Assembly (NCBI GenBank): GCA_035353175.1
Contig: DAOPZC010000022.1
Location: 29,730-61,729, forward strand
Reading direction: 5' to 3'
DNA length: 32,000 bases
From: Kiritimatiellia bacterium
GTDB taxonomy: Bacteria > Verrucomicrobiota > Kiritimatiellia > RFP12 > UBA1067
This document shows, piece after piece, positions 7,382-30,023 of the stretch. Position numbers and translations under genes: made by a program. Within the stretch, counting starts at the first letter, position 1. Each line of letters starts with the position of its first letter. The notes beneath the pieces were generated by a model. It was not told where the DNA came from and searched no databases. It worked only from the letters and a program-made list of their open reading frames with translations.

Positions 7382-10096
7382 TCACCTTGACAGTTTGGAC
7401 ACCGCGTAGCCGAATTGCTTCAGCATGGCGGGCAGCCCTACGAATTGATCGCGGTCTTTCTCTTTCTCGCTCTCCGAAAGCGCTTCTAAACCGATGGCTT
7501 GAGGATTCTTGGGGTAGAGTTCAGATCGTTCGGCTTCGGTCAGCGCGCGCCACGGCAACAGGGCTGGGTGGCGTTTGGCTTGATTGTCGCGGTCTTTTCC
7601 ATACGTCCAGCCCCCCTTGATCTTGTTTGACATCCACCGGTCGTGCTCGTTCTGCGCGAGGATCTCCAGCTCTTCATTCGGAAACGCCTCAATGCCTTGG
7701 CCCATTGTGTAAGGGGCGATGGTGTATCCGACACTGGCGAGTTTGGCGGGCATCTTCTTGGCGGCGTCCAGGTTGTCCTCCTTGAAATTCTCCGGAAGTT
7801 CATCGAACGGTTTCAAGGACGCGCTGGTTTTCTCGGCATCGTTGGACTTCTCGGCGTATTTGTAACCCCGCTCAATCAGCTTGTCGCAGTAGTTCATATG
7901 AATGGCTCTTGCGAAATCGAAGTATTTCGCTTCTTCAAGTTTCGAGACCAAGGTGAGAAACTCAAAGCCGTAGACATGTACATCGAGCTGGTGTGCCAGC
8001 GGCAAGCTGGAACGGTCAAAACGCAACTTGCCCGCAAGCGAGCTGGACATCACCAGCGATTCCATGGACCGGGCACCGTGCTTGTAATGCCCGACATGCA
8101 GGAGTGCGTTGAGCACATTTTCATCGATGTTCAGCGTCTTGCCGGCCAACAGGGTTGGGCAACCGCGTTCAAAGAGAGAACGCAGCAGCATGGCCCGGCG
8201 CACAATAAAGGCCGGGTCTTCCAGCTTGCTGCCGACCGGGTTGGGCCCCATGATATCGAGGTAACCGCGCAGGCGGCTGACAAAGTCAGGGCCTTTGGCC
8301 TCGCGGAATGTTGGGTCGCCCAGCCCCTTGTTGAAGGCGGATAACGAATTGCATGTGCCGCCTGCAAAAACGAAAATCGCCTTGCCGATCGGATGGGTTA
8401 CCTGGCCCTCCAGAAACGTCCCGTCCTGCATGGGTTCGAGGAACCGACGCAGCCAGCCCAGACTGTTCGTGTCGAACTCGTCCCAAAAAATCAGAGGCAG
8501 TTTGCCTGAGAGGCCGATGTCGCGCACCTGGTGCAGGGCGTTGTTCAGGTCGTCGGACGATTGTGCCTGGAATTGTGACAGGTTGAAGGTCCGGATCTCA
8601 AGCGCCGCATTCATGCTCAGCGCCAGCTCTTCGGCCAAGGCCTTCACGCCGAACGACTTGCCGGATCCCGGGGGTCCGAACACAGCCAGTGAGACTGGCT
8701 TGCTGCCCGGTGTGCAGATGAACTCCGCGATCAGGTTGCGCACGCTGCGGTAATTCTCGATCTCCCGCCGGTCCGCCGTCTCGAACTTGCCGAACCGCGC
8801 GGTCGGCACGCCTTTCAGGGGAGCATCCGCGCCTCCTGTCACGATTCGCCTCGCCAGACCGGCCAGATCGTCCTTGCACTTCAAGATCGACCAGTCGCCG
8901 AACTCCTTTGAACTGCACGCGACCGGCATCGGCACGGGCACGCACGCCAGCGTGTCCGCCTTGCAGGTCTTGCAGCCCGCGCAGTCGAATGCTTTCAGCC
9001 AGCGTTCCGCCACGGCCTTCGCGATCACGGCGCAGGGGAAGGCCATGCGGCTCGGCAGTTTGTCGCCCGCTTTCCCGTAGCCGTCCGCGTGCAGACTCCG
9101 GAACGCATGGACTCCCGCATGCGCAGCCGCTACAAAGTCGGGCTGCTCCGGATTCTCTGTCAGGCATCGGACTACCGCTGCCGCCGTACAAGAAAAATAG
9201 CCCATCACTTGGCCCGGACGCTGGGCTTCCCAAGAACCTTCGACGGCCTGCGGGTCAAAGACGAGCCGAGCACGCTCCTCTTCTTTTTGGGTATCCGCCT
9301 GCGGATTCAGGATCAGTGTGCCCGCCGCCCCGAACGAGACGATGACGCGGGCGCAGGTCACCGCCGGCGTTCCTGTCAGCATCGACGTGCCGAACTTCTT
9401 GAAATTCAGGTCCCACAGAAGATCCTGCACCGTGCGCTCCCAGGAGATGCCCTTGCTGATCTGAGCGTCGCCTTGGCGCAGACCGTCGGCCGTACACAGC
9501 ACGATCACGCGCTCGGAATGCTTGGACAGGAAATCGCGCCACAACACCGCCGTCAGATCGAGTCTCGATGTCTTCCAGACGATCCAGCGCGGCTTCTTTC
9601 CGCTGTCGAACCACTCTGGGCAAAAAACGGGCTTTTTGTCGAAGCCGAGCTGAGAATCATTGATGACCAGAATCTCAGGCGCGTCGCACGCGCACTCCAG
9701 TTCGGGGGTTGAATCGGTTCTGCTTAATCCAAGAAACCGCTCCACGCGCCAGACCTTCTCTTTGGCCTTTTTCACGTCCTTTTCGCCGTTGAAGCCGCGG
9801 TGCGGGGTCCATACCGTGTAGCTGCGGGAGAAGGGCGCCTGGTCATTGATCTGCGCCTCTTCCGGTGTCTTGGGCCCGCACACGGACCACTGGGCTTGTC
9901 CTTCTGTAGGTGACGGGGCCAACACCGCGCGGATCACATCGGTCAAGAGCGCGGCGCCGCCGCGCTCCCATGTGACACTCGCGTTATCCTGATCGTTCCA
10001 TAATGCGGCCTCGGTCTTAAGGGCAGGCAGACGTGCGATGTTGCAGTCGAGCGTGGTATCTCCGATAACGCAGACGGTCTTGTTCTGTGTGCTCAT
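7382..10096 (-). CDS. large multidomain protein: N-terminal ~430 aa with a weak ribokinase/PfkB-like pattern, central AAA+ ATPase, C-terminal RyR (ryanodine-receptor repeat) domain
   Basis: Walker A 'FGPPGSGKS' lies at 8654-8677 and Walker B is 'LPLIFWDEFD'. The C-terminal 'FARAIHMNYCDKL...ILAQNEHDRWMSNKIKGGWTYGKDRDNQAKRHPALLPWRALTEAE...EKDRD' matches the RyR Pfam pattern. The N-terminal stretches 'VCVIGDTTLD', 'RGGAALL' and 'VIVSFGAAGTLIL' are only loosely PfkB-like. An alternative start lies at 10138. I prefer the ATG at 10096, which has an AGGAG 12 nt upstream. Confidence 0.75.
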   Translation of the reverse strand: MSTQNKTVCVIGDTTLDCNIARLPALKTEAALWNDQDNASVTWERGGAALLTDVIRAVLAPSPTEGQAQWSVCGPKTPEEAQINDQAPFSRSYTVWTPHRGFNGEKDVKKAKEKVWRVERFLGLSRTDSTPELECACDAPEILVINDSQLGFDKKPVFCPEWFDSGKKPRWIVWKTSRLDLTAVLWRDFLSKHSERVIVLCTADGLRQGDAQISKGISWERTVQDLLWDLNFKKFGTSMLTGTPAVTCARVIVSFGAAGTLILNPQADTQKEEERARLVFDPQAVEGSWEAQRPGQVMGYFSCTAAAVVRCLTENPEQPDFVAAAHAGVHAFRSLHADGYGKAGDKLPSRMAFPCAVIAKAVAERWLKAFDCAGCKTCKADTLACVPVPMPVACSSKEFGDWSILKCKDDLAGLARRIVTGGADAPLKGVPTARFGKFETADRREIENYRSVRNLIAEFICTPGSKPVSLAVFGPPGSGKSFGVKALAEELALSMNAALEIRTFNLSQFQAQSSDDLNNALHQVRDIGLSGKLPLIFWDEFDTNSLGWLRRFLEPMQDGTFLEGQVTHPIGKAIFVFAGGTCNSLSAFNKGLGDPTFREAKGPDFVSRLRGYLDIMGPNPVGSKLEDPAFIVRRAMLLRSLFERGCPTLLAGKTLNIDENVLNALLHVGHYKHGARSMESLVMSSSLAGKLRFDRSSLPLAHQLDVHVYGFEFLTLVSKLEEAKYFDFARAIHMNYCDKLIERGYKYAEKSNDAEKTSASLKPFDELPENFKEDNLDAAKKMPAKLASVGYTIAPYTMGQGIEAFPNEELEILAQNEHDRWMSNKIKGGWTYGKDRDNQAKRHPALLPWRALTEAERSELYPKNPQAIGLEALSESEKEKDRDQFVGLPAMLKQFGYAVSKLSR

Positions 10097-10249
10097 TCGG
10101 GTTTTTGGCTCCTGAATTCTGACTTCATGACGGTCCATCTCTCAGTCGATGTTTCCATAACAGTAACATATGTCGTGTTTCGGGGTCACTGTGAAAACCT
10201 CGAAGGTCCGAAAATAGCTTACGAACAGATGATCCGTCTGATGTTGCCC

Positions 10250-29113: not shown

Positions 29114-30023
29114 AGTCGTGTTCCTCTGCTCGTTCGCTGTTGGAGCCGGACCGTAAGACGTCGGACGGCTGAATGAAGGTGACAAATTCCCGCAGCGAGG
29201 CCGGATCATCCGGCAGGATTATACCGCGGCCGTCATTCGGGCCTGCATTGGCAACCAGGGCGGCGAAACGCTTGGGGGCGAGTTCGTCACCATCTGTCGC
29301 AGCGACGCGTGCGCCCAGCGCCCAGGCCAGCGCCAACTCCTGCGCGGAGACGACACCGCCACCGAGGCACAGAAGAGTGACTGCAGAGGGGGGAATGCCG
29401 CTGACGAACAAGTCGTTCCACATTTGAAGCGGCTCCAGAAGCGAGAAGTCGCTGCCGACGGTGCGGACGATGTGGGGGAAGTCGAACGAGGCCTCGGCAT
29501 GTGCGGGAAGGTAGCCGACCAGCTCTACGTGCGCTTTGCCAGACGCATTTGCGTGCGCGGCGCAACGCGCGGCCAGTCCACAAACCCCGGCGCCGGTGCC
29601 GCCGGTGATGAGGTAGCCTTTATACGTAGAGAGCGCGTCTTGGAGGGGCGCTTCGTACGCGGCCAGCCGGGTGCCGCTTTGCGCATCGGTGCTTCCCGCG
29701 AGGATGAGGACTTTATTGCCAGTTCGGAACGTGAACCGGCGTTCCAACGGCGCCCGCTTAAAACGTGCTCCGCGTTCTGATGTCAGGGCTTGCCGCGCCT
29801 TGATGAAGAGGTCGGAGGCCTGATCGAGCACAGGGGCAAAGGGGTGATTTGCGCCGAGAGAAGCTTTGACGCGATCGAGCGCACGACGGATATCTGTACC
29901 GGGATGGCGCGAGTTCTTGACGGCGAGGCAAAGCTCTTCAAAAGCGGCAATCTCACGCAAAAAGCGGCCGTGCTTCTCGGAGTCATCCGGAAAGGGTTGA
30001 GCATCGGTACTGATCATCTCCAA
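29106..30023 (-). CDS. SLOG-superfamily-like (LOG/DprA/TIGR00725-type Rossmannoid) protein with an N-terminal helical extension
   Basis: The two glycine-rich motifs typical of SLOG domains are present: 'YLITGGTGAGVCGLAARCA' and 'LLCLGGGVVSAQELALAWALGARV'. The start is either the TTG at 30023 (GGAG 5 nt upstream) or the ATG at 30017. The gene overlaps the downstream gene by 8 nt. Confidence 0.5.
   Translation of the reverse strand: MEMISTDAQPFPDDSEKHGRFLREIAAFEELCLAVKNSRHPGTDIRRALDRVKASLGANHPFAPVLDQASDLFIKARQALTSERGARFKRAPLERRFTFRTGNKVLILAGSTDAQSGTRLAAYEAPLQDALSTYKGYLITGGTGAGVCGLAARCAAHANASGKAHVELVGYLPAHAEASFDFPHIVRTVGSDFSLLEPLQMWNDLFVSGIPPSAVTLLCLGGGVVSAQELALAWALGARVAATDGDELAPKRFAALVANAGPNDGRGIILPDDPASLREFVTFIQPSDVLRSGSNSERAEEHDYE

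Follow-up and report, generated by a model that had tools for sequence, protein, structure and literature searches.

Animal ryanodine receptors and TRPM2 are channels modulated by cyclic ADP-ribose (cADPR) or ADP-ribose (ADPR). Among the systems closest to the locus described here, the DUF4062 domain acts as a TIR-like NADase, converting NAD+ to ADPR and nicotinamide by means of a catalytic glutamate (10.64898/2026.05.01.722283; Evangelion preprint), and NADases of this kind constitute the single-gene defences Swarozyc and Evangelion and are present also in human TEP1 (2026 preprints). RyR-domain proteins of phages are nanomolar binders of 2′cADPR, 3′cADPR and cADPR, or enzymes that cleave these molecules, and crystals of phage RyR domains hold ADPR in the pocket (PMC13232231; 10.64898/2026.06.04.730250). 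RyDEP is an RyR-domain glycosidase with a His/Asp dyad, and most phage homologues carrying the dyad are binders (PMC13232231). The systematic survey of Thoeris deliberately removed the AVAST (Avs)-type TIRs and leaves RyR effectors unmentioned. A search of the literature on RyR together with TIR, Thoeris, SLOG, SLATT or PF02026 found no description of host-encoded RyR proteins in such systems, and term searches in two DUF4062 preprints turned up no RyR, SLOG or other second-component partner. The present locus, in which two RyR-domain proteins of unrelated architecture are encoded beside two DUF4062-NACHT paralogues, lies in a 32,000-nucleotide stretch of contig DAOPZC010000022.1 of a Kiritimatiellia bacterium; this whole stretch is referred to as the window.

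The core region of the window comprises eight genes, of which the two NACHT genes are convergent. An AAA+ ATPase carrying RyR repeats (AAA-RyR) is encoded divergently from NACHT paralogue 1 (NACHT1), with about 710 nucleotides (nt) between them, and a TrkA_N-RyR protein (TrkA-RyR) is encoded on the same strand as NACHT paralogue 2 (NACHT2), 140–240 nt upstream of it. The RyR domains scored 84.5 bits in AAA-RyR and 57.6 bits in TrkA-RyR against a PF02026 cut-off of 27.4, and NACHT1 and NACHT2 were 35% identical over 933 amino acids (aa; E-value (E) 2e-135), as true paralogues. Thus both the gene pairs and the orientations given in an earlier note on this DNA were recovered, and its start sites (AAA-RyR as 7382-10096, TrkA-RyR as 27293-29113) agree with plausible start codons. 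The NACHT1 start at 10847 was taken from a gene call on the JGI contig. We hold it somewhat better than an even chance that the locus is a multi-gene, Thoeris-like immune module that signals through an NAD+-derived product and has sensors of the NOD-like receptor (NLR) type. The RyR domains of the two neighbouring proteins probably sense that product, and the pairing may be a bacterial counterpart of ADPR/cADPR signalling to RyR channels. Observed in the data are the domain identities, the conserved ligand and catalytic residues, an operon-level linkage that recurs across phyla, and the interchangeability of DUF4062 and TIR_2. The features concerned are as follows.

7071-7305, minus strand: 3′ remnant of another TrkA_N-RyR gene, with a frameshift (blastx, two frames)
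7382-10138, minus strand: AAA-RyR protein, 918-aa open reading frame (ORF), likely start 10096; Pfam RyR E 6e-24 (two stretches), AAA E 2e-5
7385-7936, minus strand: tandem RyR repeats of AAA-RyR (Pfam PF02026)
~8039-8776, minus strand: AAA+ P-loop ATPase of AAA-RyR (Pfam AAA)
8783-10096, minus strand: PfkB/ribokinase-like fold of AAA-RyR (AlphaFold2 (AF2) model and Foldseek)
10847-15310, plus strand: NACHT1, DUF4062-NACHT-propeller (ORF 10790-15310); Pfam DUF4062 E 1e-12, NACHT/AAA_16, HTH_NWD1
10871-11167, plus strand: DUF4062 of NACHT1 (48.5 bits against a PF13271 cut-off of 24.7)
11441-11470, plus strand: candidate catalytic motif of NACHT1, 'SATHQEILHG'
~11813-12403, plus strand: NACHT domain of NACHT1; beyond it come a winged helix and, at the C-terminus, a beta-propeller-like region
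15307-16905, plus strand: 532-aa TPR protein (gene call; weak TPR matches)
21918-27056, minus strand: NACHT2, DUF4062-NACHT-WD40 (ORF 21918-27152); Pfam DUF4062 E 5e-9, AAA_16, 13 WD40
22263-24020, minus strand: WD40 array of NACHT2, 13 repeats (Pfam)
26448-26477, minus strand: candidate catalytic motif of NACHT2, 'SATHQEIIHG'
26769-27032, minus strand: DUF4062 of NACHT2 (36.6 bits against the PF13271 cut-off of 24.7)
27293-29113, minus strand: TrkA_N-RyR protein (ORF 27293-29209); Pfam TrkA_N E 4e-13, RyR E 1.6e-15
27296-27787, minus strand: RyR Repeat12-like C-terminal domain of TrkA-RyR
28490-28792 and 27986-28279, minus strand: RCK/Rossmann domains of TrkA-RyR (Pfam TrkA_N; second Rossmann with GFGRMG)
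~28835-29080, minus strand: pore-like membrane domain of TrkA-RyR with two transmembrane helices (2TM)
29106-30023, minus strand: SLOG-like 305-aa protein (weak match to Pfam SLOG cluster4 (LDcluster4))

Under the favoured model, the DUF4062-NACHT-propeller proteins would be infection sensors triggered via their repeat domains, upon which the NACHT module would oligomerise and switch on the N-terminal, TIR-like DUF4062 NADase. The product would be ADPR, or an ADPR-derived or cyclic isomer. Its receptors would be the Repeat12-like RyR domains encoded next door and, probably, the SLOG-like protein. The RyR proteins would serve as effectors gated by this ligand, or would process the signal; opening of the membrane, or some other disturbance of it, would fall to the 2TM/tandem-RCK/RyR protein, and the PfkB-like/AAA+/RyR protein would exert its effect via the ATPase or the ribokinase-like module. 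What we infer is which way the signal runs, what the ligand is, that TrkA-RyR has channel activity, what the PfkB-AAA+ protein does as output and that the role is anti-phage.

The linkage of RyR genes to genes of the TIR superfamily was examined in 80 loci anchored on AAA-RyR, taken from species-representative genomes, and in 80 metagenome loci anchored on TrkA-RyR, the ORFs of which were scanned with purpose-built hidden Markov models (HMMs); the TrkA-RyR N-terminus was searched with single-sequence phmmer. Pfam confirmed 33/33 of the DUF4062 and 95/96 of the TIR HMM matches. Within 10 kb of AAA-RyR, DUF4062 was encoded at 29 of the 80 loci (25 of these with NACHT) and canonical TIR_2 at 36, one or the other being present at 53 (66%), and at 33/44 (75%) where the flank was at least 12 kb. 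The binomial tail for 29/80 or 53/80 was <1e-17 against a background of 5%, an assumed figure that was deemed generous. The nearest TIR or DUF4062 gene was separated from AAA-RyR by a median gap of 278 nt, lay within 150 nt in 22/52 cases and was co-directional in 42/52 (binomial p 9e-6), while the density of such genes fell about 7-fold, from 1.85 per 10 kb at 0–2 kb to 0.23–0.26 at 6–10 kb. When 150 ORFs neighbouring AAA-RyR at DUF4062-free loci were scanned blind with Pfam, TIR_2 came out as the top family (18 ORFs); the next families listed, all of them WD40/beta-propeller models, matched 5 ORFs. Positive loci spanned at least eight phyla, including one archaeon, and were found in Chloroflexota, Acidobacteriota, Lentisphaerota, Planctomycetota, Aminicenantes, Alpha- and Deltaproteobacteria and a Methanomicrobia metagenome-assembled genome (MAG), where two DUF4062-NACHT genes flank AAA-RyR as in the window. 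Around TrkA-RyR, TIR or DUF4062 was encoded at 35/80 metagenome loci and at 11/15 of those with long flanks, and AAA-RyR was also present at 14/33 loci with a flank of at least 8 kb.

These data show that the linkage between RyR and TIR-like genes is real and not due to chance, the pairing recurring in dozens of unrelated genomes, and they support the functional link that the earlier note had proposed between RyR domains and DUF4062-NACHT proteins. The partner class it had named was indeed found, but is not exclusive. A link specific to DUF4062-NACHT was rejected in favour of the TIR superfamily at large, given that TIR_2 was the top family in the blind scan; the partners are DUF4062 or TIR_2 domains fused to NACHT, TPR or WD40. 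The TIR_2 partners had TIR_2-TPR, TIR_2-WD40 and TIR_2-NACHT architectures, and a near-invariant glutamate (column E94) was present in at least 90% of their 96 sequences. Several TIR or DUF4062 paralogues per locus were common. At locus L016, from a Lentisphaeraceae relative, AAA-RyR is 95% identical to that of the window, yet the TIR and DUF4062 partners are others. In the related contig L009 the order M90, SLOG-RyR, TIR_2-NACHT-WD40 stands against M90, SLOG, TrkA-RyR, DUF4062-NACHT-WD40 in the window. By this gene-order comparison DUF4062 and canonical TIR_2 are interchangeable at one syntenic position, NAD+ chemistry being their common trait. The pairing of RyR proteins with TIR-like NLRs, for which no earlier description was found in the literature searched, would be a variant of TIR-based immune signalling.

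On the enzyme side, almost every full-length, RyR-linked DUF4062 protein that was checked had the motif S-x-T-x-x-E-[IL]. The glutamate of S-x-T-x-x-E-I is a candidate for the published 'acidic-SYT' catalytic glutamate, with which it was equated by motif. The DUF4062 clade of the window has an insert of about 95 aa within the domain. Pfam assigned NACHT, AAA_16, nSTAND1 and HTH_NWD1 to NACHT1, and AAA_16 and NPHP3_N, with NACHT and HTH_NWD1 as weak matches, to NACHT2. The WD40 units of NACHT2, thirteen at window 22347-24017, are tandem repeats of 126 nt (42 aa) with 82% nucleotide identity, a hyper-similar array that is typical of rapidly diversifying NLR sensor domains, and the protein ends in a Cys-rich, zinc-ribbon-like tail (CRCLHCG...CPHCHG). 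The start of the TPR gene overlaps the NACHT1 stop by 4 nt. Two other contigs (L176 and L177) contain a three-gene operon encoding a DUF4062-NACHT protein (~785 aa), a propeller protein (~680 aa) and a protein of ~540 aa; NACHT1 resembles the first two of these genes joined into one, with the TPR gene in the position of the third.

On the receptor side, phmmer searches of the PDB matched the RyR domains of the window to repeats of RyR1-3 (E 1e-21 to 1e-13). The first repeat of each protein is degenerate (H..Y/F), the second canonical (EHxRW...GW.YG). Ligand residues were placed by alignment with the phage sponge RyR Tad (gp68, phage CB1), using the published numbering of RyR Tad and RyDEP. Residues H832, W835, H857, K894 and D895 in repeat 2 of AAA-RyR correspond to H129, W132, H154, K170 and D171 of RyR Tad and are kept in 32–37 of 37 family members (86–100%). 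TrkA-RyR keeps the His, Trp and Asp and has Tyr at +41, a partial match to the ligand residues. The shared ligand suggested in the earlier note fits both the identity of DUF4062 as a TIR-like NADase and the literature on RyR domains, which bind or cleave cADPR isomers and hold ADPR; the docking module offered beside it is favoured by nothing among the results. The canonical repeats of AAA-RyR and TrkA-RyR were 36% identical over 44 aa and ranked 109–149 for each other among 182 RyR repeats from related loci, so the idea that they are recent duplicates or mutual closest relatives was rejected. By sequence comparison the two proteins represent separate, widespread orthologous families. It had been proposed that the link would fall if the two domains belonged to distant subfamilies from unrelated contexts; the subfamilies are distinct, but they share one recurrent context, so that this objection does not apply.

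Structure predictions were run on database homologues of the window proteins. The AF2 model of TrkA-RyR (predicted local distance difference test (pLDDT) 89.6) found its best Foldseek PDB folds in GsuK, TrkA, MthK and Slo1. The match to GsuK (4gx0) had E 1e-8 over 449–534 columns, with the layout of 2TM and cytosolic RCK domains present, and the C-terminus of the model aligned over about 190 columns with Repeat12 of human RyR3 (9ls7; TM-score 0.58 normalised to the target). The loop from the pore-helix-like segment to the second transmembrane helix reads 'LMHMVSQDDMPL', and only one proline of it is conserved in a 35-member family. At least 132 database matches belong to the TrkA-RyR family.

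AAA-RyR contains the P-loop GPPGSGKS and the Walker B motif FWDEFD. For residues 15-452 the AF2 model had a pLDDT of 75, and the top 50 Foldseek PDB matches were all PfkB-family kinases (E 1e-8 to 5e-7). The PfkB fold was seen by the AF2 model alone, as no sequence-level match to this region was obtained in a Pfam scan or a PDB profile search. Judged by eye in the family consensus, a 'GGAAL' is conserved and the C-terminal part reads 'DP...EG.W...PG.M.GY'. The family has 613 database matches and occurs in at least 581 species-representative genomes.

Further nucleotide-sensor modules were associated with the RyR genes. The SLOG-like gene runs right up to the TrkA-RyR start or overlaps it with its stop codon. 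The 305-aa product matched SLOG LDcluster4 at E 0.017, below the cut-off, and was 66% identical to the N-terminal 291 aa of the SLOG-RyR fusion in L009, which itself matched LDcluster4 and LSDAT_prok at E 1e-3. In 37–48 of the 80 genomes a gene for a SLOG/DprA-like protein of about 190 aa follows AAA-RyR at gaps of -3 to +25 nt (for example L056 4901-5509 and L035 4157-6391), the product being sometimes fused to SLATT_1/SLATT_3 2TM domains; AAA-RyR of the window is without such a partner. A third RyR family, of 850–970 aa and (NUDIX)-RelA_SpoT-SLOG(LSDAT_prok)-RyR architecture, was found at 19 of the 80 TrkA-RyR loci and in L012 (examples are L012 877-3771, L099 12209-14755, L154 11713-14616 and L147 7871-10483), with LSDAT_prok matches at E 2e-4 and with domains homologous to the 305-aa protein of the window. 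Proteins of this family join an output resembling a toxic alarmone synthetase to two putative ADPR-type sensor domains. Since it is fused to channel-like, ATPase, SLOG and alarmone-synthetase-like outputs near TIR-superfamily enzymes, the RyR domain behaves, as judged from these architectures, like a promiscuous sensor module. In L009 the AAA-RyR/TrkA-RyR pair is followed (14574-20830) by genes for a WD40 protein, TGT-like, Ogg-HhH and QueC proteins and a ThsB-type TIR, possibly a 7-deazaguanine-type module beside a Thoeris-like TIR.

The earlier note had further described a mirrored arrangement of RyR protein, NACHT, cargo, NACHT and RyR protein, with two RyR genes in all. The arrangement is present in the window with its convergent NACHT genes but in no other locus, and a third RyR element was found in the relic at 7071-7305. 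The relic is directly downstream of the AAA-RyR stop and preserves the last ~80 codons of a TrkA-RyR gene, frameshifted over two reading frames. It was 53–60% identical to residues 522-602 of the L009 TrkA-RyR (blastx, two frames), a copy that follows AAA-RyR, and was closer to it than to the intact TrkA-RyR of the window. A full-length TrkA-RyR gene is directly downstream of AAA-RyR in 20 of the 80 genome loci, as well as in the nearest relatives L005 and L009. In L016 a 74-aa ORF matching the RyR HMM lies 65 nt downstream of AAA-RyR and resembles the relic in position. Because the relic of a second TrkA-RyR adjoins AAA-RyR, the mirror layout is read from the sequence as a derived, lineage-specific and incidental rearrangement, in which an ancestral AAA-RyR/TrkA-RyR operon lost its second gene. 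A simple insertion of the 17-kb NACHT block that split adjacent RyR genes was rejected, as gene order and orientation misfit and a relic of a deleted TrkA-RyR copy was found instead.

The remaining features of the window are the following.

17748-18455: 235-aa ORF with no Pfam match and 0 homologues in the 80 genome loci
19152-20954: 600-aa ORF with no Pfam match; among the 80 genome loci a homologue only in the close relative L016
30199-31101, minus strand: Peptidase_M90 gene (Pfam E 3e-83)

The left flank (window 1-7000) is housekeeping, with hydrogenase/complex-I-like subunits, YbeY, CstA and NDK, and the RyR/NACHT block starts abruptly at ~7.0 kb. The best database matches point to an organism of the Kiritimatiellia or Lentisphaerota (PVC) in a metagenome of the anaerobic-digester type. 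Peptidase_M90 heads the minus-strand string M90, SLOG-like, TrkA-RyR and NACHT2; it had 0 homologues in the 80 AAA-RyR genome loci, synteny being found only with the related contig L009. Window 17000-21000 has a GC content of 52%, against 60–68% in the flanks, and ORFs without Pfam matches. The homologue of the 600-aa protein in L016 directly follows a TIR_2 gene (4-nt gap). Between NACHT2 and the 600-aa gene, on the minus strand, an ORF of 243 aa (21092-21823) contains the HUH-like motif 'NHMHLL' and weakly matches IS200/Y1 transposases (E 0.002); it may mark a rearrangement point. A place in the system for the 'cargo' genes between the NACHT genes was unsupported, as they had no Pfam match and did not recur in the 80 loci except in L016; the TPR gene overlapping NACHT1 is the exception.

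Several points weigh against the signalling model. Characterised DUF4062 enzymes yield plain ADPR and nicotinamide and act by NAD+ depletion, so that a dedicated second messenger is at most putative for this domain. The TrkA-RyR family has Ser, Thr or Asn, never His, at the phosphate-binding +25 position, and no TVGYG-type K+ selectivity filter was found in the consensus of its 35 members. With the phosphate-binding His and the K+ filter both missing, the ligand and pore functions of TrkA-RyR are uncertain; in the absence of a conserved filter it was not accepted as a bona fide K+ channel and is called channel-like. The canonical PfkB motif GAGD was not evident in the N-terminal domain of AAA-RyR when the family consensus was read by eye. 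No TIR or DUF4062 gene lay within 10 kb at 25–34% of AAA-RyR loci. Scans of eight core proteins with PADLOC and NCBIfam gave no specific match, no Thoeris call and no defence-system call. The main caveat came from five NACHT1 homologues (48–71% identity) picked irrespective of RyR. RyR was encoded within 10 kb of only one of them (L175), by an AAA-RyR gene at 670 nt upstream, so that from the NACHT side the link is facultative. SLOG(-SLATT) genes were present at 2/5 of these loci and extra TIR_2 genes at 3/5, while RyR, SLOG and TIR_2 were all missing within 10 kb at 2/5, one of which encodes DUF4062 a second time. Members of the DUF4062-NACHT clade evidently do occur without RyR partners.

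That RyR neighbours are often missing at DUF4062-NACHT homologues would be expected if the NACHT proteins were self-contained, NAD+-depleting sensor-effectors. The RyR and SLOG proteins would then not be downstream effectors but would regulate the product, as buffers, glycosidases or an off-switch (as do phage RyDEP, ring nucleases and NUDIX proteins), or help in NAD+ salvage. Known DUF4062 enzymes do hydrolyse NAD+ to ADPR as single-gene defences, the His/Asp dyad of the glycosidase RyDEP is present in the window too, and some RyR proteins carry fused NUDIX domains. The fusion of RyR to output modules (2TM-RCK, toxSAS-like RelA_SpoT and AAA+) and its pairing with SLATT 2TM genes follow instead the pattern of sensors on effectors, and the phage homologues with the same dyad are mostly binders rather than enzymes. 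We regard such a division of labour as unlikely, though it deserves serious consideration.

The flow of information might also be reversed, with the RyR, SLOG and RCK proteins sensing a metabolic or phage-derived nucleotide (for example an NAD+/ADPR imbalance) upstream of, or in parallel to, the TIR-like NLRs. The RCK domains of GsuK, the fold match of TrkA-RyR, are regulated by NAD+/ADP, and about one-quarter to one-third of AAA-RyR loci have a SLOG partner only, with no TIR or DUF4062 gene nearby. The repeat domains of the NLRs, including the hypervariable WD40 array, are nevertheless the obvious pathogen sensors, TIR-type domains are known as signal producers, and no output domain besides DUF4062 was detected on the NACHT proteins. 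A reversed flow was accordingly judged improbable. Little likelihood was likewise given to the absence of any direct coupling, by which RyR systems and TIR/DUF4062 genes fused to signal transduction ATPase (STAND) modules would be independent defences gathered in shared defence islands. The loci are rich in TIR and STAND paralogues, toxin-antitoxin genes and transposases, and the density of TIR/DUF4062 genes is still 0.23–0.26 per 10 kb at 6–10 kb, so that an island effect may contribute. Mere co-residence in islands is disfavoured because of the adjacency statistics: the 7-fold decay over 6 kb, the close and co-directional nearest genes, the stop/start overlaps in the window and other loci, the standing of TIR_2 as the sole strongly recurrent neighbour family in the blind scan, and an association that holds across at least eight phyla despite differing surroundings. 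A non-immune role in the control of ion homeostasis or stress physiology, through NLR-like regulators responsive to NAD+/ADPR, would suit the housekeeping flanks of the window, the metabolic surroundings of some AAA-RyR loci and the lack of a match to defence-system models, but is very improbable in view of the patchy distribution, the swapping of partners even between close relatives such as L016, and a hypervariable WD40 array, IS200-like and DDE transposase genes and phage RyR anti-defence proteins that point to host–virus conflict.

The signalling model, with NLR-fused enzymes as producers, remains the one we favour. A broader proposal is advanced tentatively, as one we think possible but would not yet back: that an immune network widespread among prokaryotes uses RyR Repeat12-like and SLOG domains as its receptor modules and NLR-fused TIR-superfamily NADases as its transmitters, with the channel-like 2TM/RCK protein gated via its RyR domain by a product of the ADPR or cADPR type. 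Such a network would be a prokaryotic antecedent of the animal axis from TIR/CD38 through cADPR/ADPR to RyR (and TRPM2), and from it the RyR Repeat12 domain would gain a concrete ancestral function. If the model were true, a function would be assigned to bacterial RyR domains, which had none until the 2026 phage homologues that bind or cleave TIR-made cADPR isomers, and phage RyR sponges would be explained as mimics of the host's own receptor. TIR second-messenger immunity would be extended to NLR-fused TIR and DUF4062 enzymes, a class left out of the Thoeris survey and assumed to act by NAD+ depletion only, and the new effector types would be an RyR-gated 2TM-RCK membrane protein, a PfkB-AAA+-RyR ATPase and RelA_SpoT-SLOG-RyR enzymes. 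Direct action of cADPR/ADPR on ryanodine receptors and the role of Repeat12 are long-standing questions, for which a small bacterial channel-like RyR protein with a linked NADase is a tractable system. As human NWD1 and TEP1 share the DUF4062-NACHT-WD40 architecture, a signalling rather than purely degradative role is a testable hypothesis there.

Of the known systems, Thoeris (types I-XI, with a ThsB TIR and an effector bearing a SLOG, Macro or other sensor) resembles the locus in that a gene for a TIR-superfamily NAD+ enzyme stands beside genes for proteins with nucleotide-sensor domains and toxic or membrane outputs. Multiple TIR paralogues per locus recall multiple ThsB, and a SLOG-like domain is present. 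By analogy with their phage homologues, RyR and SLOG would be the receptors of the signal. The putative producers differ, being NLR-like fusions of DUF4062 or TIR_2 with NACHT, TPR or WD40, and the putative sensor is Repeat12-like RyR, which is outside the described Thoeris effectors. The 2TM-RCK, PfkB-AAA+ and RelA_SpoT outputs are new, and PADLOC returned no Thoeris match.

The phage proteins RyDEP and RyR Tad share PF02026 with the window, and their pattern of His, Trp at +3, His at +25 and Lys/Asp at +41/+42, which forms a pocket binding ADPR and cADPR isomers, is matched in AAA-RyR. The proteins of the window are, however, host-encoded, large and multidomain, they are found in operons with TIR-like enzymes rather than in phage anti-defence hotspots, and TrkA-RyR has Ser where the phosphate-binding His is expected. 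The DUF4062 ('NIR') NADases Swarozyc, Evangelion and human TEP1/NWD1/NPHP3 have the same F-x-S-S-T-F, DLRWG and S-x-T-x-x-E motifs, and human NWD1 and TEP1 also the same domain architecture; the described bacterial members are single-gene NAD+ depleters, unlike the window clade with its ~95-aa insert. As in the antiviral STAND proteins bNACHT and Avs, an N-terminal effector domain, a NACHT P-loop with winged helix and a C-terminal repeat sensor, hyper-similar in the WD40 array of NACHT2, follow one another, but here the N-terminal domain is proposed to signal to separate RyR proteins and not to be the sole effector. TrkA-RyR shares with GsuK, MthK and Kch a 2TM pore-like domain followed by tandem RCK domains, and differs in the want of a TVGYG filter and in an extra C-terminal Repeat12-like domain; in the model its pore is putative. 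From animal RyR (Repeat12) and TRPM2 (SLOG/MHR1-2) the locus is set apart by a wholly different channel scaffold and a prokaryotic context, kinship being drawn from domain homology alone. It nevertheless has in common with them Repeat12- and SLOG-type nucleotide modules on or beside a channel-like protein and, like the pathway of SARM1, a TIR-type NADase as the upstream enzyme.

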